A DNA stretch of 51,894 nucleotides. Origin: an uncultured Acidobacteriota bacterium (GTDB taxonomy: Bacteria > Acidobacteriota > Thermoanaerobaculia > Multivoradales > JAHEKO01). How positions within the stretch are numbered: position 1 is the stretch's first letter; every line of letters starts with the position of its first letter. The notes below the pieces were generated by a model, which was not told the DNA's origin, ran no database searches, and saw only the letters and a list, made by a program, of their open reading frames with translations. Where the stretch lies: positions 1 to 51,894 of the forward strand of contig CAVQNG010000002.1 of the NCBI GenBank assembly GCA_963713825.1. The letters are read 5' to 3'. This document shows positions 11,972 to 32,753 of this stretch, piece by piece. A program made the position numbers and the translations under genes.

Positions 11972-11983
11972 AGCGTAGGGAAC

Positions 11984-14382: not shown

Positions 14383-14438
14383 CCGTTACAGCGGAGATCC
14401 GGATGCTGCGCGAACAGCAGCGCCAATCCGCGCGCCTT

Positions 14439-15332: not shown

Positions 15333-15397
15333 GGAAGTTCACCTTTCTCTGGTAGTGAACTGATCGGTTCTCAATCTGCTAGTGCGGGGACGGAGGC

Positions 15398-16290: not shown

Positions 16291-16833
16291 TTACTGAATG
16301 GTTGGGAGGAGAGCGTTAAGCCTTCCTCCTATGGCAACGTACCTCTCGACTCTAGTCTCGTAGGTCTCTAGGTCTTTACCGTATTCACTCACGCTGTAGT
16401 TGAGCTTCCCTTGGCTCTTCAGACAGAGCTTTCGGCTTATCTTTTGAAGATCGGCCACGGTTGAATTGAGAGCCTTGGCGAATTCGTCGAGCGTGGAAAG
16501 GAACATACTGTGTTGTGTCTCAGCTCTGCGAGCCGCCGGGATGAGGGATATCGTGGAGCTCAACTCACTTCCCTGTCTCGAGAGGTTCGTTTCAACTTTG
16601 CAGAACTCTATTTTCTCGAAGATTCCAGGAATCGGGGTTATGTGGCGAGCGTTCGTGTCGAAGATCTGGTTGTGAATGCCGATGTACTTGCTCAATGCCC
16701 CGTTCACTTGTGTCGCCAGCTGGAGTGCTTGACTGGCCTGAGCCTGAGAGGTCACAGTCGCTAGTAGCGTTGCTGCGAGCAGTAACGTGGTGTGTAGAAG
16801 GCTTCGCTTCGGTCCCGGGCCTCTCTCGCTCAT
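16291..16833 (-). CDS. Secreted helical hypothetical protein
   Basis: 180 aa, signal peptide ending QAQA, GGGAG RBS. Confidence 0.65.
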   Translation of the reverse strand: MSERGPGPKRSLLHTTLLLAATLLATVTSQAQASQALQLATQVNGALSKYIGIHNQIFDTNARHITPIPGIFEKIEFCKVETNLSRQGSELSSTISLIPAARRAETQHSMFLSTLDEFAKALNSTVADLQKISRKLCLKSQGKLNYSVSEYGKDLETYETRVERYVAIGGRLNALLPTIQ

Positions 16834-17030
16834 CTCTTGACTCCCTATTGGTGAACTGAGTGAACTGAATCACCGCATCGCGACTCTGTGAGGATCGTAA
16901 GAGATTAGTGTGAAGTCTGTCAGTGACGACCTCAACTCGAAGATGAATTTGCGAAGTAGTCTACTTCTCCGCCACTTCAGCGCAATGGAATTCGTCCATC
17001 TGACAGGCCGTTTGAGACTGACAGTGGAAT

Positions 17031-17108
17031 TGAAGCCGCCCCCAACGCTGGACCAAGGGTTGTGAGAATTCTCGCAGATTCCCGGTCCAACTTTCGGGGG
17101 ATGCCTCA
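17031..17108. mobile_element. 78-bp miniature IS3-like remnant (two terminal inverted repeats only)
   Basis: Left TGAAGCCGCCCCCAACGCTGGACC vs reverse complement of right TGAGGCATCCCCCGAAAGTTGGACC; TG...CA ends; no clear target duplication. Confidence 0.55.
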
Positions 17109-17180
17109 CTAGTCTGTGGAATCGTCCCTTGTGTGCCTGACTAGAGACGCTCAGACTGGGTCCAGCCAGGGGGACCGTCT

Positions 17181-17597
17181 ATGAAACGCTTGAACGTCAT
17201 CTATTTCACTGTCCTTGGCTTGCTAGCGTTCTCGGCCTCTGGCGAAGCAGGATTCAAGTTCTTTGACTCAACTCTTGTCGATGTGGTCGAGGTCGACAAC
17301 GAGGTCGTTGAGGAAGTATGGGAGACGGCATACTCCTACAACAACGGTAAGGGCGCAGCGAAGATTCGCAAGAGCGGTCGATGTAAAGCAGCCAAACTCG
17401 CCCTTGAGCGAGGCTTTGAGTTCATGCAGTACGAAGAACGGGACAACGAGGATTGGGCGGTGAGCGAGGCGACTGCCACGTTCATGAAGCGCGATCGTGG
17501 TGAAGGGTCACTACCTGAAGACGCCAGGATCTACGAACTCTGCAAGTACGTAGTCCTCTGGGAGTGCAAAGGATCTGAGAGGTGGGCCCGTGAGTAG
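17181..17597 (+). CDS. Secreted hypothetical protein
   Basis: 138 aa with signal peptide. Confidence 0.6.
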   Translation: MKRLNVIYFTVLGLLAFSASGEAGFKFFDSTLVDVVEVDNEVVEEVWETAYSYNNGKGAAKIRKSGRCKAAKLALERGFEFMQYEERDNEDWAVSEATATFMKRDRGEGSLPEDARIYELCKYVVLWECKGSERWARE

Positions 17598-17760
17598 ACA
17601 GCCTTGTGCCGGTTTGGGTCCTTTGGTCCCATCTCCGCATTGTCGAGCACAGTGCAGTAGCCACCCGTCTCTTCCCCTGTTGAGTTCGTAACGCCTCCCT
17701 AACCATTTGGGTGTGGTCTCGCAAGGTCAACTAGATAGGGTTTCGGGAAGGGAATTGACT

Positions 17761-18423
17761 ATGACAGTGAAACCATGTCCAGCATGTCATCTGGTCAACC
17801 CACCGGAGGCTCAGGTCTGCGACTGTGGATACCTATTGGTGAACTCCAGCGACAATGGCGAGCCGGTAGCAGAAGAAGAGCGATCGCACGGAGGGGGTGT
17901 TCTATCGGGGCAGGGTGATGGCAGAGACTGGCAAGAGTTCGCAGCTTCGTACATCGGACTGTCGAAGAAGCGACAGTCGGAGATCTGGTCGAATCTATCG
18001 ATAGAAGAAAGGATCAAGTTCTCAGCAGCTTGGGAGGCTTGTGGCTACGCCAATGTGCCCATTTCTCCTGAAGCTGCGGCGAAGTCAAGAGACCAACCGA
18101 AGCGAAGCAGAACCCTACTTCAGGAGCAAAGGCTCATATTCATCCGCAGAACCCTGGTTACCTGGAGCATCGCATACGCTGTCAATTTCGCCGTCTTCTG
18201 GTTCTCCGAAGGCTCCCATATTGACATCATCTTCGTGGTACGCCTCGCATGTAAGGCATTTCTGGTCTGGGCGGCATGGGACTTTGCAACGCACCTTGAC
18301 AGCACAGCAACTGGCAGGAGGGCCTTTTACGCAGCAGTAATGTTCCTTTTCCCATTGCTGGCTTTTGTAGGTTTGCTCTTCTGGTCGCGAAGGGAAATGA
18401 GCCCGACTCTCGCTCGGGCATAG
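17761..18423 (+). CDS. Zinc-ribbon membrane protein
   Basis: CPAC..NP..A..CDCGY N-terminus plus 3 C-terminal TM helices; AAGGGA RBS before ATG 17761. Confidence 0.65.
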   Translation: MTVKPCPACHLVNPPEAQVCDCGYLLVNSSDNGEPVAEEERSHGGGVLSGQGDGRDWQEFAASYIGLSKKRQSEIWSNLSIEERIKFSAAWEACGYANVPISPEAAAKSRDQPKRSRTLLQEQRLIFIRRTLVTWSIAYAVNFAVFWFSEGSHIDIIFVVRLACKAFLVWAAWDFATHLDSTATGRRAFYAAVMFLFPLLAFVGLLFWSRREMSPTLARA

Positions 18424-18724
18424 TATGTGGCTCTTGTCCAAGCCATTGCAGCATTCTGCGCGAAAAGAGGGGATACCCCTCTACCACCTCGGGTGTTGTG
18501 CCGATCCTCCACCTTTCGCGATGGTTGCCGGAGACCCGAATGGGAAGTGAAGTGATGAAGAGAGTGGCCTTGATTCTGCGCGCCTTCAACGTGCCAATCA
18601 CTCTCTTCTCCGCCGAGCTCTCGGCGCAGGCATTCGAAGTAGACGGACCGATCAAATCAGATCCGATTCTCTGAGCTGGTGTGGTGATTGGAAGGGCTGA
18701 AGCAACCAAAGAAGGAGACTAACC

Positions 18725-19105
18725 ATGAAGCGAATCACCGTGCTGTACATTCTTCTAGTTCTGAGCCTGACGTGGTTCGCAGTCGAGTACCACAGGGACA
18801 CGGTTAGGGAGCTCAAAATCGGAGACCGCTGGGCTCTGAATAATAGCGAGTGGAGAGTCACGGCAGAAATCAACAAGCAGACCGAGATGTATTACTGCTG
18901 GGAAAAGGTCATGCTGAGGCTGATCGAGGTTGACAAGTTGGAAGCTCTCGACACCGAGCATGTCCGGGCAATCAACGACTCCTGCTATTCGGATCCGAAA
19001 GGAACGATAAAGCTGGTAAGCGAGATCAGACAGGAAGCTGGGTTGGAGTTTCTAGTGCGCTCCGTACTAGATCACCTACCCACTGAGACGGAGGTCTCGG
19101 AGTAA
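18725..19105 (+). CDS. Hypothetical protein with N-terminal signal/anchor
   Basis: 126 aa, AAGGAG RBS. Confidence 0.6.
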   Translation: MKRITVLYILLVLSLTWFAVEYHRDTVRELKIGDRWALNNSEWRVTAEINKQTEMYYCWEKVMLRLIEVDKLEALDTEHVRAINDSCYSDPKGTIKLVSEIRQEAGLEFLVRSVLDHLPTETEVSE

Positions 19106-19595
19106 GGCAGATCGCATTCGCGGTGACCCGGCCCCAATGCATGTACCGCCCAGCACGCTAGGAATCCGTTCAGGACGGGCGCATTCTACTCGAGTGTCCT
19201 CCGAGGGGCAGTCGATCGCTTCTGGTGCCGGCGACAGTGTTCAATCGGAGATCGAGTAAGGCACCGAGGGAATGAGGCGATCATTTGCCAACCGAGCAAC
19301 GGCATGCCACTGAGGTGCCAAATCACATATTAGGGCTGCCCGCCCAACCCAGTGCGAGTAAGCCCGCCATGCAAGAGTTGAAGAACTGGAACGGATGCCG
19401 CCTAGTCCTTCTCGAGGGAAAGTCTAGGCACATGGTCGAGATACCCTGCGTAGTGCTGGAAGCCCCACCTGATAATCGCTAGCGGATCAGAGCAGCGTAC
19501 GCCCGTGTGGGGGTACTGCATGAGAAGGAGTGGATAGTCGAGGGCTGAAGGCTTGCCCCGCAACAGATCCGCGCCTAGTAGGAATCAGCTCAAGC

Positions 19596-20204
19596 TCATT
19601 GGCACTGCTGACACACTTGAGGACAGTCACTTCCCCCTCCGGGTCCTGAATAGCACGGCCCTCCGGGGCCGTCATAACAGGGTCCTCCCGGCCCGTCGTA
19701 CACCGGCCCTCCTGGGCCTGAATAGCAGGGTCCCCCTGGACCGTCATACCTCGGCCCCCCAGGGCCGTCAAATGCTGGTCCCCCAGGACCGGAGAACTCC
19801 GGCCCTCCGGGGCCGTCGTAACAGGGTCCTCCTGGGCCGTCATATGCTGGTCCGCCTGGTCCGGCGTATGCTTGACCTCCCGGCCCGGCGTAGCACGGTC
19901 CACCAGGGCCAGCATAGCCTTTACACTGACAAACAGAGTCACCGATGGGAGGCAACGTTGAGCTGACGGGTGGGATACTAGGATAGGCCCTTGGGGAATC
20001 CGGCACTGAGCCGGATGCTAACTTTTCGGCCAGAATGAGCACAGCTTGGTTGTAGGCTTCTAGTGTGAGCCTTGGGTCTCGCGCCTTCGCCTGCGAGTAG
20101 GGGATCAGCTTCTTGATGGTCAAGACAAGTTCTGCCTGCGTTTCAGCGAAAACCGGCCCGCTGAGTAAAGACGCAAGAATGAGCAACATGAGGATTCGTC
20201 GCAT
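19596..20204 (-). CDS. Secreted protein with 12 tandem (Y/F)xGPGGxx octapeptides flanked by Cys clusters
   Basis: Signal peptide (..PVFA); CQCKG-[repeats]-DCPQVCQQCQ; GGAGG RBS before ATG 20204. Confidence 0.82.
   Translation of the reverse strand: MRRILMLLILASLLSGPVFAETQAELVLTIKKLIPYSQAKARDPRLTLEAYNQAVLILAEKLASGSVPDSPRAYPSIPPVSSTLPPIGDSVCQCKGYAGPGGPCYAGPGGQAYAGPGGPAYDGPGGPCYDGPGGPEFSGPGGPAFDGPGGPRYDGPGGPCYSGPGGPVYDGPGGPCYDGPGGPCYSGPGGGSDCPQVCQQCQ
19629..19916 (-). repeat. 12 x 24-bp coding tandem repeat
   Basis: Degenerate at the DNA level, conserved as YxGPGGPx in protein. Confidence 0.9.
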
Positions 20205-20515
20205 GTCGGACCTCCCCAAAATCGTTATTGGGTGAATTCACCGTAACAAGCCCCTTTGCCCCGCAACACACCCTGATGGGTAGGGGGGTGTTGCATATTT
20301 CACAGTTGCGCTGCCGCCCAATCATAGAGGTGGAACCCATCCTTCGGACCACTTTCAGTCAAATCTAAGGTGGTATCCGGGTTCATGATTCAGGCTGTTT
20401 CTTCCTCAGTCTGCGATGAGGTTGGGCGAAGCCCCGGTCCCTGAGCAGCCCCGTCGTCAGTTCACGCCTCCTCCAAGGCCTCAACGCAGAAGCTCGCCGT
20501 GGCTTGCTTCCGAAT

Positions 20516-20540
20516 TAGCTCGCCCTTCGGCGGTGAGCTA
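20516..20540. other. Isolated intergenic hairpin TAGCTCGCC-CTTCGGC-GGTGAGCTA
   Basis: 9-bp stem; weak U-tract, so a terminator role is uncertain. Confidence 0.3.
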
Positions 20541-20882
20541 CCACCTTTCTTGAGTTGGAAGGAGCCAGCGTCCTCTACTTGCCACACACCATCGGTTTGT
20601 AGGTGCCAGAAAGGATACTCAGGATGAGTGCTTGGGGAGTCAGGTCCGAACTCGCGGAAAAGATCCCTCAGGGGCTCCTGAACGTCTACGAATCGTGTCT
20701 TGGCGTCTTCGCCTCGGAGAATGCGGCCGAGCGCGAGAAGGGCGAGTAGGGGCTTGTGCGGTGCTCGCCTGTCCCCGTGTTTCCAGACGTTCAGAGTCTG
20801 AAATTTGTTCAGTACGTCAGAGTTTGGCGCCAGATGGGCCTCCCCGCTTCTAGGACTTCGTCTTGAATTCCGGGACTACTTG

Positions 20883-21377
20883 TCACCGGCGGGCCAGATC
20901 CTCCAGCTTCTTTTCCAGCTGTGCCAGTCTCTCCAACGCATCTTGCAGAGATGGGATTACAAGGATGCCTCTCGCCGGCTCTCGGAACAGTGATTCCATC
21001 TGCTCATAGAAGACACCGTCCTGATAGAGCTGCTTGGCTTTGTTAGAAATGATCCCGCGACTGCGAAGCGCTGGATCAAGAATGTCGTAGGCCACAAGTT
21101 CTGCGGCCTCTCGTCCGACTTTCCCAACAAGCCTCTTGTGCTTCCAGTATCGGACCTCAGTCACGTAGTCGGGGTTTAGGCAGGCTGCTGACGTGCCTGT
21201 AGCCACACTGCTGTCTCGGCGCAAGAGATGCTGTTCGATTCGCCTCTGGAGATCCTTTCCGCTTCCTACATAGGCTACATATCTGGATCTGCCTTGGCCG
21301 CCATACAAGGCATAGACCCCTGGAGTAGTAGGGAGGTCCGGGATCGAGGTGTGAGTAGTCATGCCAGAGCTGTTCAT
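20883..21377 (-). CDS. GIY-YIG nuclease-family protein with C-terminal coiled coil
   Basis: PGVYALY...YVGSGKDLQRRIEQH, later conserved Glu (AAEL); ATGA overlap with the upstream gene. Confidence 0.75.
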   Translation of the reverse strand: MNSSGMTTHTSIPDLPTTPGVYALYGGQGRSRYVAYVGSGKDLQRRIEQHLLRRDSSVATGTSAACLNPDYVTEVRYWKHKRLVGKVGREAAELVAYDILDPALRSRGIISNKAKQLYQDGVFYEQMESLFREPARGILVIPSLQDALERLAQLEKKLEDLARR

Positions 21378-22786
21378 TCGTTCAGATCTCCATTAGTCCG
21401 AAGGCTGGGGAATCCGGGGTCGTCAGTGTCCAACGCTGGCCACCCTTCGTGGAGGTCCCTCGCATTCAATGCTGCTCGCATGATGAGGGCCTCCGAATCA
21501 CTTGGTCGGCGTTGCGAGGCCCAGGAGAAGAAAGCGGTTAGAAACCGAAGCCACTGCGAATAGTTGATCGCGAGCGGATTGGCATGAAGGCAGATGACTT
21601 TTCCTGCATTTGCCGCAGCTGCGATCCCGTGAGCACCGAGGGCCATCGCCAGGAACCGGGGGTGGCGCCCGATTCGTTTCGTATTGTTCAGCTCCGCCTC
21701 GTGTTCGATCTGTATCTGGTATGGAGGATCGAGCCTCTGCCGAAGTGCAAAGTAACCTCGAAGCACGGTCTCAGCAGCTGCTACTGAGGTACTCATGGTC
21801 AGGAAATGTCTGCTGTCATATCCCTTGAGGTACATGAACCGAGCGAGTTCTGCTGCGTTTCTGTGCCTCGTTCCAAAGTCTCCAACTTGGAGAAGTTGCA
21901 GGGCAGACCAGCCTGGTGCGGGTAGGCCCATGGGAGTGAACCCGTCGGACAGGAGGTGACCAAGCTGAAACACGAAAGCGGTGAGGGGGTTAGGAATGGC
22001 CTCCCCGGTGCGGTTGAGAAAATGAATCGTTCCTGACTTGCTGATGGCCGTCAGACCGCCTCTCATGATGTCGACAGTTCCAATAACAAGGCCTAGGAGG
22101 GGGTCGTGTCCAATTGACTGGAGACGATGAGATCTTGGGTAGAAGCCATCCACTGGCACGTCTTTCACCCGGTCGTACGCGACCTTGAAGTATCTGGCGA
22201 GCCAGTTGTCAGCTGGCATATCGAGTGACCGAAGGGTCTTGGTTAAGGCACTCCCGGTCTGAGAGTGCACTCCCAGATAGACCACATCCTTCGGGATCTG
22301 GACGATGAACAAGTCAACTAATGCAGCGACTAAGCCTGCGGTGACAGTCACAGCGACGTCGTATTGGTCAAGCTCGGTTCTGATCGAGAGTCCACCCTCG
22401 AACCGAAGATGAATGTCTCGAGCTTCTTCTGGGTCCAACAGTTCATCCAAAGTGACATGGTCTACTTCGATGCTTCTCTCTTCAAGGCTGGTCCGGGCAG
22501 CGTCGCAGAGTGCGTCCCAACTGACGTTGTCGGTGTAGTGATCACGACGTTGGGCGGCCAGGGATAGACTCCTGTTCGGGGCCTGCTTGGAGGTCTCAAT
22601 GCCAAGGTGCTTTGCAGTCCTCTCTATTCGATCTTCGACCTTTCCAAGGTTCTCGTCTGTATCCTGCGCCGACTCTTTCAGCTCCAGGACCTCTTCTTTT
22701 AGGTCGGCCAGATCCCTCTTGAGCCAGTTAAGTACTACTGGCAGCGATTCGTTGGAACTCAGACTGCCTCCTCCTTTTCCATCCAA
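21374..22786 (-). CDS. Coiled-coil + membrane protein of unknown function
   Basis: N-terminal heptads, hydrophobic helices, HRLQSIGHDPLLG and GHLLSD..TPMGLPAP motifs. Start uncertain (GGAGGAGG RBS precedes a CTG at 22762 overlapping the upstream stop). Confidence 0.8.
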   Translation of the reverse strand: MDGKGGGSLSSNESLPVVLNWLKRDLADLKEEVLELKESAQDTDENLGKVEDRIERTAKHLGIETSKQAPNRSLSLAAQRRDHYTDNVSWDALCDAARTSLEERSIEVDHVTLDELLDPEEARDIHLRFEGGLSIRTELDQYDVAVTVTAGLVAALVDLFIVQIPKDVVYLGVHSQTGSALTKTLRSLDMPADNWLARYFKVAYDRVKDVPVDGFYPRSHRLQSIGHDPLLGLVIGTVDIMRGGLTAISKSGTIHFLNRTGEAIPNPLTAFVFQLGHLLSDGFTPMGLPAPGWSALQLLQVGDFGTRHRNAAELARFMYLKGYDSRHFLTMSTSVAAAETVLRGYFALRQRLDPPYQIQIEHEAELNNTKRIGRHPRFLAMALGAHGIAAAANAGKVICLHANPLAINYSQWLRFLTAFFSWASQRRPSDSEALIMRAALNARDLHEGWPALDTDDPGFPSLRTNGDLNE

Positions 22787-23709
22787 CTGATGGCAGTTTC
22801 GACTGCTCCAAGCGTAGCTTCGATGTCCTTGAGGCGCCTCGAGTTTTTGTCGTTAAGCGCTCGCTCCTCTCGCAGAGAAGATTCAATCTCTTTGCGCTGT
22901 TGAACAAGGGACTTGATTACCTCTTGTGCCTTCTTGAGCTGGATCTGGTTTGACAGGACGAGTACTCGAAAACTTGTTTGCAGCTTGGCCAGTTCCAACC
23001 GTGCCCTAGCGGCACCAATCTCGAGCAACAGCTGTCCGCCACCAATAGCTCCCCCACCGACGACAGCGCCAGTTGTAGCTATGAGCCACAGGCCACCAGC
23101 AATACCCGAGCCACCGGCTGCTAGGCTTCCTCCTCCAAGCAGAGCTAACCCGTGAGAGACGGCTGCTGCCCCGCTAAGACCTGCTGCTGAGCCCAGAACA
23201 CCTCCGATAAGTGGCGCCAGAGCCCATCCGCCCACGGCCAGAGCGGCACCCCCACCGATCGATATAACAGTGACCTTCTTCCAGTTGAGGTTCTTCTGGG
23301 ATCGTAGCGCTGCCTTTTTTGCCTTGAGTACCTGATCGACCTGAGTTTGGGAAAGGCCAAGGCTTTGTGCAACAAACGCCAGCGCCGAAGCGAAATCGCG
23401 AGGAGCGATCTTGAGATCATATGGGAAGAATGGTTGGGTGAATGCCAACTCGCACAGCAGCGGGACGGCAGTTGACTCTGTCCAGTCAGTTTTGAGTAGG
23501 GCAAGAGCACTCCCCTCGACTGTGGTTCCACCTAACTCCTCTTTGAAAGCCTGATTGAATGAATCCACCTTGATTCTGATAGCTCTTTGCTTCTTACCTT
23601 TTCGGAGCTTGTTTTTTTCGAATTCGGTAAGTTGCCTAGCCAGATCGATAGTTCCTGCTGCGATGGCGAAAGAGTCGACAGCTGCCCTGTCGGATTCAGT
23701 AATCTCCAT
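22759..23709 (-). CDS. Glycine-zipper membrane protein with C-terminal coiled coil (pore-former-like architecture)
   Basis: ~80-aa Gly/Ala hydrophobic stretch (GLSGAAAVSHGLALLGGGSLAAGGSGIAGG) followed by heptads; GGAGG RBS before ATG 23709. Confidence 0.8.
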   Translation of the reverse strand: MEITESDRAAVDSFAIAAGTIDLARQLTEFEKNKLRKGKKQRAIRIKVDSFNQAFKEELGGTTVEGSALALLKTDWTESTAVPLLCELAFTQPFFPYDLKIAPRDFASALAFVAQSLGLSQTQVDQVLKAKKAALRSQKNLNWKKVTVISIGGGAALAVGGWALAPLIGGVLGSAAGLSGAAAVSHGLALLGGGSLAAGGSGIAGGLWLIATTGAVVGGGAIGGGQLLLEIGAARARLELAKLQTSFRVLVLSNQIQLKKAQEVIKSLVQQRKEIESSLREERALNDKNSRRLKDIEATLGAVETAISWMEKEEAV

Positions 23710-23763
23710 GGTCGGCCTCCATCCTCTGGTGGTTCTGCATCTCAAACCGGCAAGTACGGGCTT

Positions 23764-24165
23764 TCAGCACACATCCCGTCCAGTCAACAGATACTCAAAC
23801 CGATCAGCTTCGCGCGCCAGGACCTTCAGATAGAACTTGAGTTCCTCTGGTTGTAGCGTGTCAGCTCGGTGGCTAACCCAGGCATCTATGCCATTTCGAG
23901 GACTCAATCCAAAGGTCACAATTTCGGTTGCGCGGTTCCGAGCCAGGATTCGCTGTGCCAAATGCTTGAGCTGGATCTTTTTGACCGCTTGAGGCCGGGC
24001 GACTGGCGAGACAAACAAGTAGAAGTCGCCCTCTTGCCGATAACGAATTACTTGGCTGCGTCCAGTCTCAAAGGTGACTGTCAAGCGCCCCTCGCTACAA
24101 CTCACCACCAAGTCATGATCAAGTCGAGCCTCGGCCCCGCCAAGTAGAGTCTTAATGTGAGGCAC
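23764..24165 (-). CDS. Small YbjN / type III chaperone-like protein
   Basis: GTG 24165 with AAGGAGG RBS; GRSQVI..FVSPVA..LARN..TLQPEEL..LAREADRFEYLLTGRD resembles the YbjN/CesT fold pattern. Confidence 0.7.
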   Translation of the reverse strand: MPHIKTLLGGAEARLDHDLVVSCSEGRLTVTFETGRSQVIRYRQEGDFYLFVSPVARPQAVKKIQLKHLAQRILARNRATEIVTFGLSPRNGIDAWVSHRADTLQPEELKFYLKVLAREADRFEYLLTGRDVC

Positions 24166-27100
24166 GTTTGGCCTCCTTGTGCAGGTCGCGACGAAACTGA
24201 TCGATCGAAGTGTCCTCTTCACCTCTCCAGTACTGCTCCAGATAGTCAGCGCACCGGCAGATCCTGCGTATGAGGTACCGAAGCTCCTCGAACTGAGTCA
24301 GCTCCTGATCGAGCAAGAGATCGCCTTCCACCGTGACGGAGTAGGAATCGCGCTCGTCTTCTGGCACTGCGCAGATCTTGTCGCCGTCGATTGCGGACTG
24401 AAGTTGCAGCATTTCGCGAGCCACTCGGTCGTTCATAGCAACGGGTCCAACAGGACTGACCCCATGCAGTAGCGTTACATCACCGTGCGCCGATTTGCGG
24501 AGGGACAGGGCAAACGGTTGTCGGCGCACGGCCGGGTCGTCCAGCAGGTTTTTCTCATCCGTCGTGAGCAACAGATTGTCAAGTAGAAACGTGGTTCCAT
24601 ACCTTCCAGCCGGTCCATCAGCTTCATCCCACTCGATGAGTAGCTCTCGGGACACCTGTTCGCGTAGCAGCTGGAAGATGTCGAGGAGATCCTGAACCCT
24701 CTTGAACGGTTTCAGAACAAGCTTTCTACTGCCCTTGAGCAGGTGTTCCTGCACGGGAAACCGGGTCTCCAGTCGGTTTTTGATGGGTTCAATATCTCGC
24801 AGCAGCTTCGCGAATTCACTTTGGGTATCAATGCTTGGCTCGAACTTCTCCATCCGAAAACCACTGTGAATGAGGCGAAGGAACCGATTCATGCGTTCGA
24901 AGACTCGATGGGCTTGAAGTCGCTCGACGGTGTCTCCAAGGTAGGGGTACTGGACCTGAAGGAGCTCCTCTGGCGGAGCTTCTTCGTCGCGGTTGTCGAG
25001 GCTGCGGTGAATCAGGGATCCGATCCGGTCGACCCGGCCCGTACGCTGTTCCATCGCGGACGGCGTCCACGCCAAACCGTAGTGAATAACCCTCGAGCAG
25101 AAAGTGTGGAGATCCTCTCCCTCCCGCAGGACATCGGTGGACACCAGAACGAACGGGTATCCTGGCAATCTGAATTGCCTGACCAGGACGTCGCTCTTGG
25201 CACCGCCATGCATACGGCCGACGGGCGACTGCTTGCCAAGTGACGTGGCATAGAGGCGTGGCAGCTCAGGAATAGGAGCCCGCAGAGCCTCAGGGAAATT
25301 CACCGCGTGGATCAGGTCGTGGTACTCGGCGAAGAGCTGAAGTTCTCTAAAGGCTGTGAAGACTTCGGTGTCCCCAACCTGGGACTCCAGGAGATCGAGA
25401 TACTCGTCAATCAACGCGGTGGACCGATCTTCAGCTTGTTCCTGTACCCGAAGTTCCATCGAACCGAGTCGATTCACGGCCAAGATCCAGAGGTCGATAA
25501 AGGCGTGACCGAGGCGGGCAGCTGCGGAAAGTAGCTCGCGCCGCCTCTCCCGGTCCTCAAGTTGCCCAGAGAATTCGCCGCCGTTGTTGATCGGCCAGAG
25601 ACGCTCTGCGAGATCGGGGCGATGTCGAAGCTCGGTGAAGAAAGTGCGAGTGTCCAGGAACTCGGAGGAACCCGGCAAGTCATCTGGCACCTCGTCCACA
25701 CGCCTTAGCGGCCTAGCACCATAGCGCTTCTGTCTAATAGTGCGGGCATCGCGGCTGACAGGGAGGCTGGATTCTGCCAACAGTTCCAGACCAGCCTCCT
25801 GATAGGCGTGAAAGAGTCGGAAGCGGGGGAGCCTCTTCCGCTTCCTTTCCTGGAGCCGGCTGAAGGCTAGACGGCGAAGATCATCCTCCACCTCAGGAGC
25901 TTGGCGGCCAAGAACGGCGCAAAGGGCCTCACGGGTGTGCGCCCTGGTCTGCAGAAGATCCCCGACGTAGTTGTCCTCGAACATGGTGGAGTAGAGAGAG
26001 CCCTCGCCACGTAAACGGTTCTTGCGAAAGGCTGCCCCTGAAAGCCACCCGCTCGGCCCGTCGCCACGGAAGAACCATGAGAAGAAGGTGTCCAAGCCAC
26101 CTTTGTCCTCGGCCTCCCCCGTTTCTGCGAGCAGCTCTTCGTCGGCCTCGAGATCGGGTTCGTCCCTTGCTTGGTCGGAGGAGTAGTCCCTGCGGCCTCG
26201 TTTGACCTGCTCCACTTTGTACTGATCGAGGATCTGCTCTAGGGGATCCTGAAGACCTGGGTCTAGCCGCTCCTGGAGATATCGGAAGATCTGTCGGTCG
26301 TATGCCAATGACAGTTTTTCTGCAATCTCTTCGACACTCCTAATTCGGCGAACGAAAACGAGTGTCTTCTCGCCTGTTCTGAAGCTCTCTGCGAGGCTCT
26401 TGACCGCAGAATCCATCTTGGGATGGGGAAGGGGTTGTCCGAACTTCCGCCGATAGGAGGCTGCCAGTCGATTGACTGCAGGGGTATCGACCCCGTCCCG
26501 CTCCGCTTGTTCTGTCGTCTGCTCAGCCCCTTCTTCGAAGGTTGCTAGCTCTTCCTCTTCGATTTCTTTCACCCCTGAAGTCTCGAGAAAGCTCTCAAAT
26601 GAGGCCAACATGCCGATCTGGAAACGGTTGTTGAACTTCTCGTGGCTCAGCACCTCGGCGACCTTCTTCTGAATTAGGGCCACGATGAGCTTCTGACGAT
26701 CGTCAGGGATCTCGAGACCTTCATCGTGGATCTCGCATCCGCCGCCGCGCCATTCGCGGCGATACATATTCTTGGTGTGGAGATCGCCAGCGATCCGTAA
26801 GCCAGTCAGGCGCCGAAGAAGAAACCTCTGTGCAGCTTCGTGTTGTTGCTGCTCCGTGAGCTCGCGGTCTTTCAGTTCGGAGACAAGGCCCCCAAACCCG
26901 AACAGATCCAGCTGATTCCAGAGCTGAACATAGTCCGTTTCGAGCGGGGTGGCCGAGAGAAACAGCACTCGGTCAAAACGTGGGCCGAATTGTGGCCATT
27001 CGAGGCTCTCCTCGTCTGTGTCGGACCCCAGAACTAGCTGGATGAGCTTGTTCCTGGCCGCGCCAGAGCTACGGCCATGCTTGAGATTGTGGCCCTCGTC

Positions 27101-27730
27101 AAACACAACGAGGTCGTAATGCGGATGGAGAATGTTGAGAGTTCTGGCGTAGATGCTCTTGAATCGGTCCTTGTCCCGCCCGACCCGCTGGAGTAGTGGC
27201 CGATACTTCAATGGCGTGATTTGTGCGAGCTGGTTCTTCTTGCCTTGCCACTCCCGCGGATCGGATGAAAGCGGCAGGCTGAAGCTCGTCAGACGGCAGA
27301 AGAAGTCTCGATTTGGATCACGGACTGCCTTCTGTGTCCAATCAAAGAGCGAATGGCAGAAAGCCACACCCCTAGCTGGAGTGCCCTGAACGCTCTTGAC
27401 TCGCTGTTCCACTCGAAGCCAATTACCGCTGACGAAGTTGCGCAGTTCTTTGATCCACTTGCGTTGGATGTTCTCGCGTGGAGCAATGTAGAGAACACGG
27501 TAGCCGGGATTGAAGTAACGAAGCAGAGACACAGCTCCCAGGGCAACGTAGGTCTTGCCCATCCCGACCTCGTCAGCGAGGTAGGCGACCCCCTCTTTCG
27601 CCAGGATGTTGTGGATGGCGACCGCACCTTGAAGCTGGTCGTCTGCCATCACCTGGGACACGGCAGGTCCGCTCTTGAAGTTCAAGAGCTCTCGAGCAGC
27701 GCCGATGGGGATGGTCTCTATTTCCCTCAT
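24152..27730 (-). CDS. SNF2-like SF2 helicase/ATPase with C-terminal chaperone-like domain
   Basis: LADEVGMGKT, DEGH, SATP, STDVLREGEDL, QRTGRVDRIG; ATGA overlap with the PLD gene. Confidence 0.92.
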   Translation of the reverse strand: MREIETIPIGAARELLNFKSGPAVSQVMADDQLQGAVAIHNILAKEGVAYLADEVGMGKTYVALGAVSLLRYFNPGYRVLYIAPRENIQRKWIKELRNFVSGNWLRVEQRVKSVQGTPARGVAFCHSLFDWTQKAVRDPNRDFFCRLTSFSLPLSSDPREWQGKKNQLAQITPLKYRPLLQRVGRDKDRFKSIYARTLNILHPHYDLVVFDEGHNLKHGRSSGAARNKLIQLVLGSDTDEESLEWPQFGPRFDRVLFLSATPLETDYVQLWNQLDLFGFGGLVSELKDRELTEQQQHEAAQRFLLRRLTGLRIAGDLHTKNMYRREWRGGGCEIHDEGLEIPDDRQKLIVALIQKKVAEVLSHEKFNNRFQIGMLASFESFLETSGVKEIEEEELATFEEGAEQTTEQAERDGVDTPAVNRLAASYRRKFGQPLPHPKMDSAVKSLAESFRTGEKTLVFVRRIRSVEEIAEKLSLAYDRQIFRYLQERLDPGLQDPLEQILDQYKVEQVKRGRRDYSSDQARDEPDLEADEELLAETGEAEDKGGLDTFFSWFFRGDGPSGWLSGAAFRKNRLRGEGSLYSTMFEDNYVGDLLQTRAHTREALCAVLGRQAPEVEDDLRRLAFSRLQERKRKRLPRFRLFHAYQEAGLELLAESSLPVSRDARTIRQKRYGARPLRRVDEVPDDLPGSSEFLDTRTFFTELRHRPDLAERLWPINNGGEFSGQLEDRERRRELLSAAARLGHAFIDLWILAVNRLGSMELRVQEQAEDRSTALIDEYLDLLESQVGDTEVFTAFRELQLFAEYHDLIHAVNFPEALRAPIPELPRLYATSLGKQSPVGRMHGGAKSDVLVRQFRLPGYPFVLVSTDVLREGEDLHTFCSRVIHYGLAWTPSAMEQRTGRVDRIGSLIHRSLDNRDEEAPPEELLQVQYPYLGDTVERLQAHRVFERMNRFLRLIHSGFRMEKFEPSIDTQSEFAKLLRDIEPIKNRLETRFPVQEHLLKGSRKLVLKPFKRVQDLLDIFQLLREQVSRELLIEWDEADGPAGRYGTTFLLDNLLLTTDEKNLLDDPAVRRQPFALSLRKSAHGDVTLLHGVSPVGPVAMNDRVAREMLQLQSAIDGDKICAVPEDERDSYSVTVEGDLLLDQELTQFEELRYLIRRICRCADYLEQYWRGEEDTSIDQFRRDLHKEAKRASH

Positions 27731-29751
27731 TCGGCCACCTTCGTCTCCGCATGCCAAAGGAAGTTCTTCTCATACCAATCGAGAAACTCTTCGTGCTCAG
27801 AGGCATCTCCCAGCGCCAACTGAGCTTTCAGCCTCTCTGTTCCTTTGAGCTGTTCCCCGAGCTCCTGGGCTGAGCGGTTGTGCTTCTTGAAGAAGTCTGG
27901 ATTCTTGGCGTCAAGTCGTCGCAAGAGTTGACGTGCCGTCAGCAACGTGAGGTATCGATTGACCAGGTCACCCTCGTCATCCGCCAGGACCTTGTCGATT
28001 AGATTCGGTAGCGAGTCGTATTTATTGCCAAAGAGCCGGTAGACAGCTTCTCGCTCGACACCTTGATCAAGTGCCTCTTCGACCCTTTTCTCGAGGCTGG
28101 CGAATGCATGAAAGATCCCGGCAAATCGATCAAACATGCTGTCTGGCCTGTCGTCGATGTCTGTGGGCACTGTAACCAGTCCCTGCTCTGCCAGGAACCG
28201 GACAGCCTTTTCCTCCAGGAACCTCTGCTTTTGCTCCGGTGACAGGAGAGACCAGAAGCGCAGGATCTCCTCAGGGGTCAGGCTGAGCAGCAGGGATGGC
28301 TTCTTGGCCATCCCCTCTTCACGGACGAGAACCGTGGCGGCTGGATGTCCCCCGACAATGACCTCGACAAAGGAGGTGCTCTTCAGGGCATGAGCGAGCC
28401 GGGCGCCGATGTCACTGGAAAGTTCAGTCCAACAATCTTGAGAGACAGGGGAAATCTGCCCTAGCTTGACTCCGGCAGAGGACAGCTCGAAGAACTCCGG
28501 TGGATCCGACTCCCAGAAGTAGCGAGCTGTTTCCGTCTGCCAGTCGTAAAGGACGGTAACGGGTGGCACCCAGACTTCTTCCGGCTCCTCCTGGTTGGCC
28601 GTCTGCTCGAACTCCGAGATCGTCTCTTTGTCCAGGAGGTCGAGCCAGAACCGGAAGCTGATGCTGCTGGGATCTGTTTCGGTGATGAATGCAGTCTCGA
28701 GATTGCCCGAAGCCGCTCGCCCGTGGGCTGCGCGAGTCAGGTTGGCTGAACCCGCGACCAAAAACTCTTTCCCTTCACTCTTCGACCAGAGGCGGTAGAC
28801 CTTGGCGTGAACGAAGCGATTGGCTTCATTCTCGGCGCCACTTTCGGAGCGTTGAAGCACGGACCTCGGAAGAGTTGACCAGCCAGCGGAAGGCAGTTCG
28901 GAGACCGCATCGAAGTAGGCCCCGCTGCAGAGGGCTGTTCCATCGTCCTCCCGCGGCAGGAAGATCCGCGTCTCCTTGGGCCCGAGAGCCTCAATAAGCT
29001 CCACCAAAGTGCCGGCTTCCTCGGTACCATCGAAGAATGGCGAGATGACCTCTAGGTTGTAGGTCTCCGAAGGAAGCTTCAATTCGTGAGATAGGAACTC
29101 TGGCAAGGTTTGCTGACCGTAGAACAGCCGCGGATGGAGCATCTTGTTAATTGTGCGATAGGGCAGATCACTGGTCCGATACACAACAAACCTTCGAACC
29201 TGTTCGAGGGCCTGGTGGTCATGGTCAGTCCCTTCGTCCTTCCGAATCCATCCGAAAAAGTCGAGTAGGTCCGAGTGGAATCGGCATTGCTCCCCGGCAT
29301 GGACCTCTTCGAACTGGGCACACTCGACGTTCTCCCACCAGCCGGACCGGGTGAGGTTGGCCGAGAAGACCCCTACCAGCAGGCTCTCCCAGAGTTCTTC
29401 CTCACTTTTGTTTTCGACCAGGATCAATGCGATCTTGGGATGAAAGTAGCCTTTGCGCTCGATCGGAATGCGGCGGAAATCGAGAGATGCGGAGCCCCCG
29501 CTAGTTTCCAGCGCTCGGCGGTCGTAGTAGACCGCCAGATGATCTATCGATCGGAGCTCATTCTCCAATTGAATCAGCCGAAGCTTGGGCACATGGGAGA
29601 AAGAGAAGTCAAAGAGAAGAGGTAGGACCTCTTCCTCGAAGAATCCAGGATCGAAGGTAAAGGTCGTGAAGACGGCAGCTTTGACTCGGCGCCCCGCGAT
29701 CGCCTCGACGAGAGCCTCGGAGAGCACGGAGGTGGGTATCGTTCCCGCCAT
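27727..29751 (-). CDS. Phospholipase D-fold (dual HKD-type) nuclease-like protein
   Basis: FHPK....SANLT and VHAK....GSANLT...NLE; TGATG overlap with the upstream gene. Confidence 0.85.
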   Translation of the reverse strand: MAGTIPTSVLSEALVEAIAGRRVKAAVFTTFTFDPGFFEEEVLPLLFDFSFSHVPKLRLIQLENELRSIDHLAVYYDRRALETSGGSASLDFRRIPIERKGYFHPKIALILVENKSEEELWESLLVGVFSANLTRSGWWENVECAQFEEVHAGEQCRFHSDLLDFFGWIRKDEGTDHDHQALEQVRRFVVYRTSDLPYRTINKMLHPRLFYGQQTLPEFLSHELKLPSETYNLEVISPFFDGTEEAGTLVELIEALGPKETRIFLPREDDGTALCSGAYFDAVSELPSAGWSTLPRSVLQRSESGAENEANRFVHAKVYRLWSKSEGKEFLVAGSANLTRAAHGRAASGNLETAFITETDPSSISFRFWLDLLDKETISEFEQTANQEEPEEVWVPPVTVLYDWQTETARYFWESDPPEFFELSSAGVKLGQISPVSQDCWTELSSDIGARLAHALKSTSFVEVIVGGHPAATVLVREEGMAKKPSLLLSLTPEEILRFWSLLSPEQKQRFLEEKAVRFLAEQGLVTVPTDIDDRPDSMFDRFAGIFHAFASLEKRVEEALDQGVEREAVYRLFGNKYDSLPNLIDKVLADDEGDLVNRYLTLLTARQLLRRLDAKNPDFFKKHNRSAQELGEQLKGTERLKAQLALGDASEHEEFLDWYEKNFLWHAETKVAE

Positions 29752-31100
29752 CAGCTGACCTTGTCCATGACCCGCGCGCCGACGGTTTTGAGGCTGTTGA
29801 GAAAGTAGGGGTTGGACCACCGATCTGGCAACTCGTCGGTAGGAACTAGCTCGCCACTTTCCTCGCGCAGACGCACGTTGAGTCGGCCCTGATCAAGACT
29901 GATCCAGGCAGCGCCCCCTCGTGCCTTCATCACGGCCCCGTTGTGTTTCAGAAGCAGGTCGACCAGCTTCTCGTAGTCCCCTGACCTCAAGACCCCTGCC
30001 ATCTGCAGGATGCGAGCTGAAGATTCACCTCCGGCTGCTTCCGAAAGTCGCGGTCCGAGCTCCCGGATTGGATCAATTTCGAGGTGCAAGAGGCCGCGAC
30101 CCCACGTTTCACGGATCTCGGTCGCGGCCTCCGAGGGCGTGCTTTGGTTTCGTCGCAAGAGAAAAGAGTAGGCGCTGGTCAGTGCCGACAACACGGGCTC
30201 GATCGAGTGAATCCTGTCGAGGGCTTCTGCCAGGTTGTTCTCTTCTTGTGCTCTCGCCCGTTTCACTGCTTCTGTGAGCTCCAGGAACCCAAAGGGCTCA
30301 GTCCACTCGAAGTTCCCTGAGTCATTGAGGGCCTCGAGAATCTTCCACATTGCCTCTTGGCGGCCGTTGGTGTGGTTCTGCCCCTCTCCGCGGCCGAGGA
30401 CCAGGCACGTGGGAAACAGCTCTAGTTCGGCGGTTGTGAGCTCGGGCCGATGCAGTTCAGCCAAAGCTGACGCCAGCCTCTTATGGCTGCTTCTCGGATA
30501 GAAGGTGGTCTCTTCCCGTTGCAGGAATCGAAGAATCTCCTTCCCAGACCGATTCCCGGTGTAGGACAGGGGAGGAAGATACTCGGTCTCGACAAACTTG
30601 CGCGCCAACGGAGTGAGCCTATTCTCCTGGTTTTCGACCAGTCCGCTGTGCCGGGCTGCCATCGTGTAGAGACCCCAGAGGCCATAGGTCTTCTGATTGC
30701 TGAGAATCTGATAGTCCTGCTTGGCTGAGATCGTCACACTCGGAGAGTCCGCAAGACGGCGCTTGACCCGAGTGATGCCTAGAATCCCATCCCAGTCATT
30801 CAGATCCTGCGGTCGTAGAGCCTGGCGACTGTAGGCACAGAGTTGTTCAACTTTCAGAAAAAGGTTGGCGCGATCCGATTCGTCCGCCTGGCCGGATTCG
30901 ACAAGCCGATCCGCAAAGTAGAGTCCAAGCAGCAGGGTCGTGAAGCCCCGAACTGAGGTTGTGACGGTCGTCAGATTGCCTACAACGCTGCGCCCGAACC
31001 TCTGCCAGATAGGAATCAGGCCGAGCGGGTCCCGCGAGCCCTTGATCTTGGCTCGGGGGTCAAGCTCAGTCAGGAAGAATGTCGGTCTGCCGTTTGCCAT
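29751..31100 (-). CDS. Unknown protein, N-terminus DUF6361-like
   Basis: DPLGL..IW....VGNLTTVT and YGLWGLY...SGL..RLT motifs; GGAGG RBS before ATG 31100; family call tentative. Confidence 0.75.
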   Translation of the reverse strand: MANGRPTFFLTELDPRAKIKGSRDPLGLIPIWQRFGRSVVGNLTTVTTSVRGFTTLLLGLYFADRLVESGQADESDRANLFLKVEQLCAYSRQALRPQDLNDWDGILGITRVKRRLADSPSVTISAKQDYQILSNQKTYGLWGLYTMAARHSGLVENQENRLTPLARKFVETEYLPPLSYTGNRSGKEILRFLQREETTFYPRSSHKRLASALAELHRPELTTAELELFPTCLVLGRGEGQNHTNGRQEAMWKILEALNDSGNFEWTEPFGFLELTEAVKRARAQEENNLAEALDRIHSIEPVLSALTSAYSFLLRRNQSTPSEAATEIRETWGRGLLHLEIDPIRELGPRLSEAAGGESSARILQMAGVLRSGDYEKLVDLLLKHNGAVMKARGGAAWISLDQGRLNVRLREESGELVPTDELPDRWSNPYFLNSLKTVGARVMDKVS

Positions 31101-31206
31101 CGGCCTCCGCACTCCAAATTCGCCACGAATCGATTGCACCGTAGCAAGGAACGGGCGCTACGCCGCTACCCATATGGGTGGGTTGGCCCATAAGGTTGCT
31201 GCTGAA

Positions 31207-31238
31207 AGGGTGTCGCAGGCTTTTGACAGAACCTGTCA
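31207..31238 (-). promoter_or_regulatory. TGACA-N5-TGTCA-N11-CACCCT box upstream of the 7-gene operon
   Basis: Perfect inverted repeat TGACAG-AAC-CTGTCA at 31224-31238, with a -10-like hexamer at the conserved spacing. Confidence 0.55.
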
Positions 31239-31322
31239 GTGATTCAGGCCAGCCTGGGGGCCGCGTGGCTCACGATGCAACTTCCGGATCATTACTGTTG
31301 TGATGCTACTGTCGGGGCCGAG

Positions 31323-32753
31323 CTACTCAGCCGATTCGCCTGAGCCTCCGGAGAATACCGATGGTTCCAACTCGAGAAGCTCAACTTTCTTCCTTTTTAC
31401 CCCGATCTCACCGTCGATCAGCAGATCCAGGAGCTTTTCGCCGTCAATCAGCGTGATAGGTGCAGCCCCCGGCTCAAAGGCCGCGTGTCTAGTGCCGGCC
31501 GAGAAGTCTCCGGTCGTGATGATGGTGCCCCTGACCGCGTTCCAGCGATAAAGAGAGCCCCTCAGCGCATCAAGCACCGGTCGCTGGACATTCGACTTCT
31601 GTCGTTTGGCCTGAACGACTTCCCGGACCGAGGTGATCCCCAATTCTATGGTGCCCACCACATCGACACCCTTGTCTCCACTCCTAGCAGTGACCTCGAC
31701 ATCTTCGTAGCCCATCTCCTGCAGGAGTTGTCGCACTAGGTCCTCAAAGTCATACGGGTCCATTTCGGAAAGCAGATCCTGCAGGGTTTCTCTGAGCTGT
31801 CGTTTTTGCTCCCTCGAGAGCTTGCGGATCTGTTGCTCCACTGTGGGTTCTGGGCTGGCTGCTTCAAGATAGGTCAATCCCTCATCAGTGATTTGGTAGG
31901 ACTGACCCACTCTCTCAATGAAACCGCGCTCCTGAAGATTCTTGAGCCTTTGGTAAAGAGTAGACTTTGCGACGGAGTCACTTCGTACCTTGGTCTGATC
32001 CTCAAGAAAACCCCGCCAGGGTCCTAGTAAATCTGCCCTTTTAGCTGGGCCCAAGTCGGATACGAGCCGAAGAAGCTCCAGGACTCCCTCAAGCTCGTCT
32101 ATTCTCCTGACAGTTTCGCCTTGCGGGTGATCTAGGAAGTCTCTCCCGGTGTCAGTCAGTTCCAAGATGTCGCCGGTCTGACGCTTGAGTAGGCTGTAAT
32201 TTGTGATGAGCAGCCAAAGGCCCACCAGATGCCTTGGGTTTACTGCCCGGTCTGTTCCTTCCCACGTCTTTCGAGCCCAGGTTCTCGGTTCACCGTCGAG
32301 GCGCTCCTCGATCCATCGATCTGGATCCGTCCAGTCCATTGCGTCCTGTGGTGTTCCTGTAAGCGCTGTTATGGCACTTCTCATTCCAGCAATCGATGCA
32401 CCCGAAGCACCCTGCCAGATTGGGATGAGCAACCGAGCTTTCGAGTAGTCTGGAAAATGCGGTACCAATGATCGATGCTCGTCGATCATCTGATCGATAC
32501 GGCCCGTTTCGAGCCAACCTCGGAGGCCAAAAACGCCTGGCCTGACGCGAACGAATGTTGAGGCTGATCCCTGGCGCCGAATCACAGAGCCGATCCGTGC
32601 ATTCATGGTGGCCTCCGGGGTTTTCCCATGAGTGACCAGCCAACCGCGCTCCAGGCCTCGCTTCGTAATCTCTCTGTAGTGGAGCGGTTCGTCTGCGTCG
32701 GTGAGTACCTGCGCAGCTGCGCCAAGAAACCCGAGACCTTCTGGCTTACCCAT
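31323..32753 (-). CDS. mrr: Mrr-family type IV restriction endonuclease with N-terminal HARE-HTH and winged helices
   Basis: LHYREIT..GKTPEATM (HARE-HTH); FEDLV..GY..GDKGVD..VQAKR..LIDGEKL (Mrr catalytic domain). Confidence 0.92.
   Translation of the reverse strand: MGKPEGLGFLGAAAQVLTDADEPLHYREITKRGLERGWLVTHGKTPEATMNARIGSVIRRQGSASTFVRVRPGVFGLRGWLETGRIDQMIDEHRSLVPHFPDYSKARLLIPIWQGASGASIAGMRSAITALTGTPQDAMDWTDPDRWIEERLDGEPRTWARKTWEGTDRAVNPRHLVGLWLLITNYSLLKRQTGDILELTDTGRDFLDHPQGETVRRIDELEGVLELLRLVSDLGPAKRADLLGPWRGFLEDQTKVRSDSVAKSTLYQRLKNLQERGFIERVGQSYQITDEGLTYLEAASPEPTVEQQIRKLSREQKRQLRETLQDLLSEMDPYDFEDLVRQLLQEMGYEDVEVTARSGDKGVDVVGTIELGITSVREVVQAKRQKSNVQRPVLDALRGSLYRWNAVRGTIITTGDFSAGTRHAAFEPGAAPITLIDGEKLLDLLIDGEIGVKRKKVELLELEPSVFSGGSGESAE

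Follow-up and report, generated by a model that had tools for sequence, protein, structure and literature searches.

We analysed a stretch of 51,894 nucleotides (nt) from an uncultured Acidobacteriota bacterium (Thermoanaerobaculia; Multivoradales; JAHEKO01), which comprises positions 1 to 51,894 of contig CAVQNG010000002.1 in GenBank assembly GCA_963713825.1 and is referred to below, at its full length, as the window. Our subject is a compact run of seven co-oriented open reading frames (ORFs) on its minus strand, which lie between positions 20883 and 31139 in the ORF list of the window and which a preliminary description, made from the letters alone, had taken for a single seven-gene defence system. 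Gene starts were picked by ribosome-binding sites together with the lengths of homologues, and the resulting genes, numbered g1 to g7, are listed here with the stretch that precedes them.

31101-31322 (-): intergenic stretch of 222 nt, from the stop codon of mrr (31323) to the start of g1; presumed promoter region of the cassette
31100-29751 (-): g1, 449 amino acids (aa), ATG start with GGAGG 6 nt upstream; the start agrees with that of the homologue in metagenome locus L094
29751-27727 (-): g2, 674 aa
27730-24152 (-): g3, 1192 aa
24165-23764 (-): g4, 133 aa, the length most often seen in its family; GTG start after AAGGAGG
23709-22759 (-): g5, 316 aa
22786-21374 (-): g6, 470 aa, TTG start
21377-20883 (-): g7, 164 aa

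The junctions are tight throughout. Overlaps of 1 nt (g1/g2), 4 nt (g2/g3, ATGA) and 14 nt (g3/g4) are followed by a gap of 54 nt between g4 and g5 and then by further overlaps of 28 nt (g5/g6) and 4 nt (g6/g7, ATGA). These coordinates agree with the layout first described, in which five of the six junctions overlap and one 54-bp gap is left, and the intergenic box that the run was said to have of its own is present as the 222 nt between mrr and g1.

The first three genes are matched by the PADLOC models of PDC-M27. The name refers to the phage defence candidates (PDCs), of which 145 were obtained, according to the preprint that describes them, by guilt-by-embedding in BREX, DISARM and type I restriction-modification (RM) loci (bioRxiv 10.1101/2024.01.29.577857). 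The product of g1 matches PDC-M27A (1.3e-23) and no Pfam model even at E ≤ 10, and its family holds 1172 proteins at E ≤ 1e-3, with a Pfam domain in none of the 120 listed. We therefore do not retain its earlier designation as DUF6361-like: neither the Pfam DUF6361 model nor the PADLOC ZacA model matches g1 at E ≤ 10, and the sole sign of such a relationship is a sub-threshold Atlas lead at 0.84. In g2, which matches ZacB (5.9e-21), PDC-M27B (1.7e-17) and, under the cut-off, Pfam PLDc_2 (4.3e-5), both HxK...SxN motifs (H104/K106/S130/N132 and H315/K317/S335/N337) are at least 95% conserved among 59 distinct homologues, which bears out its description as a phospholipase D (PLD) protein with two HKD motifs; no solved structure was found for it by sequence. 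The product of g3 matches PDC-M27C (2.6e-75) and ZacC (2.3e-23) and carries Pfam Helicase_C, ResIII and SNF2-rel domains, its GxGKT and DExH motifs do not vary among 48 sequences, and RapA and Ino80 are its sole solved relatives by sequence, so that its reading as a superfamily 2 (SF2)/SNF2 helicase holds. A scan of the whole run against NCBIfam gave helicase-motif matches and weak UvrC-like matches only. The earlier hunch that genes 1 to 3 recall Azaca stands as far as distant homology goes, on the strength of the ZacB and ZacC matches, but PDC-M27A and PDC-M27C are the better matches and g1 has no ZacA match. Full-length relatives of g3 were absent from 40 close relatives of the genome, 12 of which gave helicase-motif matches only, and neither g3 nor g4 had a match in the plasmid collection.

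Loci of the M27 type were collected by a metagenome scan with the g3 alignment, and the best 80 of 408 were compared, 32 of which reach at least 3.5 kb beyond g3. Among loci with at least 3.5 kb of upstream sequence, g1 and g2 are each present in 58 of 58 and the A-B-C order is kept. The fourth gene of the run is nearly as constant a companion: a hidden Markov model (HMM) of the g4 family finds it beside g3 in 65 of the 80 loci, and tblastn in 56 of 60. Fourteen of the 15 loci missed by the HMM lie on contigs that break off before g3 reaches its 3' end, and in the last (L117) the g3 match itself stops at residue 433 in mid-contig. The two genes share one open frame in 4 of the 65 loci; in the other 61, g4 lies on the strand of g3, and in 60 of these its frame opens before the g3 stop codon. 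Fusion is also seen among proteins. The g4 family has 198 representatives at E ≤ 1e-3, mostly of 130-135 aa, and among 12 long family matches examined, four of 1281-1350 aa (P0157, P0159, P0213 and P0235) carry a C-terminal g4 domain in a protein with a PDC-M27C match of at most 3e-72, four shorter ones correspond to the C-terminal part of M27C, and four matched nothing. Within the phylum of the window, g4 was found in 5 of 401 genomes including the window's own (G000), and the four others all have g1, g2, g3 and g4 in that order, fused in one case, with no g5, g6 or g7 in the 14-20 kb fetched.

The sequence of g4 has no PADLOC-DB 2.0.0 model at E ≤ 10, and Pfam at the same threshold gave one chance-level row. 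Its AlphaFold (AF2) model, with a predicted local distance difference test score (pLDDT) of 95, is by comparison readily placed. The structural aligner VIA-align returned 36 entries of class-I type III secretion system (T3SS) chaperones and YbjN with Z of 13.3 to 8.8 over about 100-122 of the 133 residues, and the next entry followed at 5.6. The top match was 8q8o (Z 13.3, root mean square deviation 2.8, 122 residues), with SycN/YscB (Z 12.2), ExsC (11.9) and YbjN 6vu7 (10.4) among the others, and Foldseek gave a probability of 1.00 at template modelling (TM) scores of 0.5-0.6. The proposal that g4 is YbjN-like is borne out at the level of fold. T3SS-chaperone folds bind extended peptides of partner proteins. 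Because g4 is conserved with g3 and in some lineages fused to it, we read it as a conserved fourth subunit seated on the helicase, where it is most likely an adaptor, sensor or regulator.

The association ends with g4. Neither g6 nor g7 occurs in any of the 80 M27 loci, and the single g5 match (1/80) falls on the glycine zipper of a DUF726 protein encoded in L094. That locus is the closest readable relative of the window, with 62-70% protein identity over g1 to g4. By blastn, positions 31076-23764 of the window align with 6646-13970 of L094, and the similarity ends exactly at the g4 stop codon, with nothing downstream aligning. We scanned 20 co-oriented ORFs downstream of g4, taken from 20 of the 56 loci, and they are a mixed set that includes DUF726, PD-(D/E)XK, uracil-DNA glycosylase, DUF429, sigma-54 activator, recombinase, two transposases, PLD-ResIII-DUF3427, Mrr and epimerase. 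The co-occurrence of genes 4 to 7 with genes 1 to 3, on which the first description turned, is consequently seen for g4 and not for g6 and g7, nor for g5 beyond the zipper region in L094.

The next two genes are related to Bunzi. Pfam assigns no domain to g5, and its hydropathy profile has a Gly/Ala-rich hydrophobic region (from about residue 146 to 222-235) and then a coiled coil, as foreseen when it was called a glycine-zipper membrane protein. PADLOC matches it to PDC-M09A (about 4.3e-10, residues 167-285), and at E ≤ 10 there is neither a BnzA match in PADLOC nor a TerB match in Pfam. Since PDC-M09A also matches the glycine zipper of the DUF726 protein of L094 (8e-10), the match to g5 may reflect the glycine-zipper region alone. 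The product of g6 aligns with positions 30-473 of the 504 in the BnzB profile (2.3e-58), has no Pfam match, and falls in unnamed clusters only in the Atlas. Its AF2 model (pLDDT 89.7) shows a long N-terminal helix, one hydrophobic helix and a helical core, which suits the coiled-coil membrane protein originally described. The fold gave no match at E ≤ 1e-3 to the PDB or BFVD with Foldseek, the best Z in a wide VIA-align search was 6.6 among generic helical matches, and no solved structure was found by sequence. Across an alignment of 103 sequences 19 columns are invariant, with many D, H and R residues among them, and suggest an active or binding site.

A genome scan with g6 supplied the BnzB loci, of which the best 80 of 128 were compared; flanking sequence extends 8.5 kb or more upstream in 57 of them and 600 nt or more downstream in 72. 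None of g1, g2, g4 and g7 occurs in any of the 80, and the g3 HMM matches in two, both times a DpdE-type helicase and not an M27C protein. The g6 homologue rarely stands alone: where its ORF could be defined (74 loci, with 6 of the 80 undefined), another ORF abuts it upstream in 72. A g5 homologue holds this upstream position in 15 (tblastn) to 17 (HMM) of the 80 loci. We scanned 46 of the 72 upstream ORFs together with g5 of the window, omitting 26 that were mostly near-identical 174-aa Streptococcus copies. For 14 of the 46 the best match was PDC-M09A, as for g5, 13 matched BnzA strongly (1e-36 to 1e-82), 16 matched BnzA weakly and 3 matched neither. Among 12 partners checked against Pfam, TerB was found in L035 only and a weak DUF533 match in L089. 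The two types of partner may be distantly related, because one of them (L024) matches the BnzA and M09A models over the same region. A quick tree of 48 BnzB rows places g6 of the window in a clade of 15 rows from at least 6 phyla with 99 support in the Shimodaira-Hasegawa-like approximate likelihood ratio test (SH-aLRT), and 13 of the 15 have an M09A-type partner; the canonical BnzA-partnered clade and a Bacillota/Actinomycetota clade both stand apart from it.

Elsewhere, pairs of the g5-g6 type adjoin DruE/DpdE, HEC-01, or a type IV enzyme with DrmA. In one Rhodothermales metagenome-assembled genome (L023:486-10851 (+)) such a pair comes right after a DruE-like protein of 1735 aa and a DpdE helicase (958 aa, 1.4e-263), an order from which it follows that the pair nests beside other helicase systems. 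The genome of the window holds a second, divergent pair on contig 10 (L013, 2917-3459 (-) and 1432-2691 (-)), where the gene of a 180-aa PDC-M09A-like protein (9e-15) immediately precedes that of a 419-aa BnzB-like protein (1e-9), well away from any M27 cassette. Among the 40 close relatives only G031 has a relative of g6 (1.2e-24, with an internal TAG). Distant BnzB relatives also occur in 470 plasmid records of PLSDB, all below 60% identity and none covering 80% or more of the query; those listed have 28-39% identity over 42-75% and are annotated as hypothetical proteins, and 433 of the 470 records are predicted to be conjugative, with Enterobacter, Salmonella and Klebsiella as their main sources. 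We conclude that g5 and g6 are a separately mobile pair of the Bunzi family.

The last gene has yet another distribution. Its match to Pfam GIY-YIG (E 1.2e-3) stays below the cut-off, at 19.6 bits against 22.6, and PADLOC adds PDC-S14 at 1.2e-5 over about 40 residues. The family has at least 278 homologues of about 160-170 aa, with 51-74% identity among the matches listed. Across 20 sequences the mean column identity is 54% and Y22, Y36, R46, H50 and E93 are invariant, residues that fit a GIY-YIG site. The only solved structure that the family profile matched, and weakly so, is the UvrC N-terminal domain 1yd6 (E 0.071). The original GIY-YIG assignment agrees with the motif residues and falls short on the Pfam score. 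Within the phylum g7 occurs in 4 of 401 genomes, including that of the window. In the three others the g7 homologue is the only match to positions 15000-24000 of the window (tblastx), and in one of these genomes (G202, locus L178) the neighbours of g7 are neither Bunzi nor M27 genes. The viral contigs searched hold no relative of g7. On sequence grounds, we regard g7 as a predicted small GIY-YIG-like nuclease of a separate conserved family with a distribution of its own.

Taken together, the evidence leads us to favor the hypothesis, to which we assign a probability of roughly 80%, that the 10.2-kb run is made up of three defence-type modules, independent of one another in evolution and lined up head to tail within a defence island. 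The PADLOC models themselves divide it, because g1 to g3 match PDC-M27A, B and C, g5 matches PDC-M09A and g6 matches BnzB. The chaperone-like g4 belongs to the helicase module and is not a bridge, because it travels with g1 to g3 and g5 to g7 do not; its proposed part as a link to a membrane effector is at odds with both its co-occurrence and its fusions. Likewise, g5 and g6 had been seen as a membrane-depolarising arm of the nuclease-helicase core, a view which does not fit their recurrence without g1 to g4 or g7 in all 80 BnzB loci. Seen as a whole, the run combines a listed candidate (PDC-M27) with a Bunzi variant and a separate small nuclease.

We hypothesize the following division of labour. 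Module A (g1 to g4) would be a four-gene Azaca-like nuclease-helicase system, made up of PDC-M27A/B/C and g4, whose proteins probably form a complex by analogy with Azaca. ATP-dependent action of g3 would let g2 cut invading, perhaps modified, phage DNA, and g4 would act from the helicase as its adaptor, sensor or regulator. Module B (g5 and g6) would be a Bunzi-family pair acting at the membrane, and module C (g7) a small GIY-YIG-like nuclease of a separate family. The tight junctions would then reflect compaction of the island and possibly read-through transcription, and not a common mechanism.

Three other explanations deserve consideration. The first is that g5, g6 and g7 form a local three-gene variant, in which g7 has been recruited as the nuclease effector of the Bunzi-type pair. 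The ATGA overlap of the g6 stop with the g7 start and the invariance of the predicted catalytic residues of the g7 family could be cited for it, but the overlap was seen only in the window among the loci examined, g7 is missing from all 72 BnzB loci with at least 600 nt downstream, and in three other genomes of the phylum nothing but the g7 homologue matches positions 15000-24000 of the window, with neighbours other than Bunzi or M27 genes in G202. The high conservation of the g7 family fits a self-contained function, and we find recruitment by the pair rather unlikely.

A second possibility is that the position after g4 is a slot for exchangeable effectors, occupied by the Bunzi-type pair in the window and by the DUF726 hydrolase in L094, with g4 coupling the helicase to its occupant. 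The L094 gene (13983-15293 (+)) begins 13 nt after g4 and encodes 436 aa, with a Cys-rich N-terminus and a glycine zipper like that of g5; its DUF726 alpha/beta-hydrolase part matches at 5.5e-31, and a NucS_C/PD-(D/E)XK protein and an HD_4 protein come next. A glycine-zipper gene is in this way the first after g4 at both loci, across a gap of 54 nt in the window and of 13 nt in L094, and the two zippers are alike (65% over 40 aa between g5 and the L094 protein by tblastn, 1e-16 with the g5 HMM, and PDC-M09A matches for both). A coupling role for g4 would also suit the peptide-binding habit of T3SS chaperones, whose fold it shares by VIA-align. Against this idea stand the facts that only two loci show the arrangement and that the other 79 M27 loci and the four further genomes of the phylum have no such gene. 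Moreover, the genes found downstream of g4 elsewhere are unrelated, encode transposases or lie on the opposite strand, glycine-zipper regions are of low complexity and match one another easily, and the Bunzi-type pair adjoins many other systems. We consider such a slot distinctly improbable, and regard as very improbable the fuller claim that, in this sub-clade, g4 is both an obligatory fourth subunit and the coupler of the helicase to interchangeable glycine-zipper membrane effectors. Were it true, the g4-coupled membrane effectors would give a DNA-cutting system an abortive-infection arm. Finally, the notion of one integrated seven-gene system, with the nuclease/helicase core joined through g4 to the membrane pair and the GIY-YIG nuclease, draws on the co-orientation, the five overlaps and the want of a clear internal terminator or promoter, but it is contradicted by the absence of g6 and g7 from the M27 loci and of g1, g2, g4 and g7 from the BnzB loci, by the four genomes that carry g1 to g4 without g5 to g7, by the end of the L094 similarity at the g4 stop codon and by the fact that in every fusion examined g4 is joined to the helicase and not to a membrane protein, so that we leave it only the slightest chance, kept above zero because of the compaction, the missing terminators and the zipper gene after g4 in both members of the sub-clade.

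The hypothesis of three independent modules has its own difficulties, which account for our reservation. The defence roles of PDC-M27 and of the TerB-less Bunzi subtype are putative, and the binding of g4 to g3 is deduced from the fusions only. The two samples cover the best 80 of 408 M27 loci, 32 of which extend 3.5 kb or more past g3, and the best 80 of 128 BnzB loci. Both members of the sub-clade, the window and L094, have a glycine-zipper membrane gene after g4 (2/2). The nearest relatives in the databases lie on short contigs, namely one of 1571 nt for P0392 (88% identical to g1) and one of 5179 nt for P0002 (68% identical to g6). The seven genes may also form one transcript and possibly be co-regulated, given their co-orientation, the five overlaps and the lack of a terminator that stands out. 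A consensus scan detected no internal promoter-like sites where 2.9 were expected and 13 terminator-like sites against 11.8 expected, which is no excess, and the fold of the spacer between g4 and g5 is no better than that of shuffled sequence (z -1.23); for these three reasons a single transcript is allowed by the sequence. At the g6/g7 junction, the ATGA overlap suggests translational coupling in the host.

The surroundings of the run have the character of a defence island, with a WYL regulator, a NucS-like gene, type I RM, SIR2 and Mrr genes and the three modules. As first reported, the run lies downstream of hsdRMS, SIR2 and mrr: HsdR, HsdM and HsdS were identified, and Pfam matches Mrr_cat at 1.5e-28 and SIR2_2 at 3.8e-23. 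Further upstream in the island are a NucS_C-like protein (40301-41353 (-)) and a protein with WYL, WCX and helix-turn-helix domains (41395-42339 (-)). The latter, at the upstream end, could regulate the island. The G+C content is 0.53-0.61 from about 5 to 41 kb and 0.61-0.65 in most flanking windows. In the intergenic stretch ahead of g1 (31101-31322), the consensus scan found no sigma-70 site. The same stretch contains a 10-bp palindrome, CCCATATGGG (31170-31190 (-)), which could be an operator. Because the alignment with L094 starts only at 31076, within g1, the intergenic stretch and its palindrome are not common to that locus. Repeats within 20500-31400 amount to short two-copy matches only. 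A separate co-oriented cluster at 10376-15332 (-), which may be a further module for membrane stress or defence, holds a protein with RDD and trypsin-like protease domains (10376-11971), a weakly matched TerB-domain protein (11984-12586, 1.7e-4), two ORFs without assignment and, at 14439-15332, a DUF2167 protein (4e-76).

Compact runs of genes in defence islands can pass for one operon-encoded system, and comparative genomics splits the present one into units open to separate cloning and testing. For the helicase module, constructs of PDC-M27 that omit g4 may fail, and g4 is a candidate sensor or regulator for an M27 family that is large, the g1 family alone holding more than 1000 clustered proteins. 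For the membrane pair, g5 and g6 define a Bunzi subtype without TerB, whose BnzB folds confidently but unlike solved structures.

Comparison with known systems sharpens these assignments. The run shares with DISARM the combination of an SNF2-type helicase with a PLD nuclease at a single locus, but the DrmD models match g3 over a stretch of just about 44 residues, at helicase motif VI and around it (6.9e-15). DISARM DrmD was rejected as an identity for g3, with an NCBIfam DrmD score of 65 bits against a cut-off of 610 and no DrmA, DrmB or methylase in the run. The likeness of g5 to PDC-M09 is limited to its glycine-zipper/coiled-coil part (residues 167-285). With the T3SS class-I chaperones and YbjN, g4 has its fold in common and no sequence-family match; the chaperones belong to a secretion context, whereas g4 belongs to a nuclease-helicase cassette and is sometimes the C-terminal domain of the helicase.

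In Bunzi, the partner BnzA is described as having a TerB domain and transmembrane helices, with a conjectured role in membrane surveillance (10.1101/2022.05.11.491447). The pair in the window resembles it in the match of g6 to nearly the full BnzB profile and in the membrane partner encoded directly upstream across an overlapping junction, and differs in that g5 has neither TerB nor a BnzA match and g6 falls outside the canonical BnzA-partnered clade of the quick tree. Azaca is presented as a system of three components (10.1101/2025.07.10.664194; 10.1101/2024.10.26.620412), and its definition is credited to Millman et al. 2022 (10.1101/2025.07.10.664194; 10.1101/2024.10.26.620412; PMC10952713); the name has no occurrence in the 2022 preprint version searched. 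BmAzaca is reported to defend strongly against T4, and ZacA, ZacB, ZacC, the Walker A motif of ZacC and the PLD site are all given as required for cleavage of T4 DNA (bioRxiv 10.1101/2025.07.10.664194). Genes g1 to g3 have the same make-up, an unassigned protein with a PLD nuclease and an SF2 helicase in which the HKD and Walker A/DExH motifs are intact, but g1 has no ZacA/DUF6361 match, g3 is far closer to M27C than to ZacC, and the cassette in the window has g4 as a fourth gene. The term PDC-M27 was not found in the literature searched, its published composition being in the supplementary tables of 10.1101/2024.01.29.577857. Both the conserved fourth gene of the M27/Azaca-like cassette and the TerB-less Bunzi subtype seem to be new, and the supplements of the PDC paper may list either. 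PDC-M27 itself is the closest counterpart of the helicase module: g1, g2 and g3 match its components A, B and C in one co-oriented cluster, the cassette stands beside type I RM genes in both the window and L094, and g4, which no PADLOC-DB 2.0.0 model matches, is nevertheless present wherever the helicase gene is complete.

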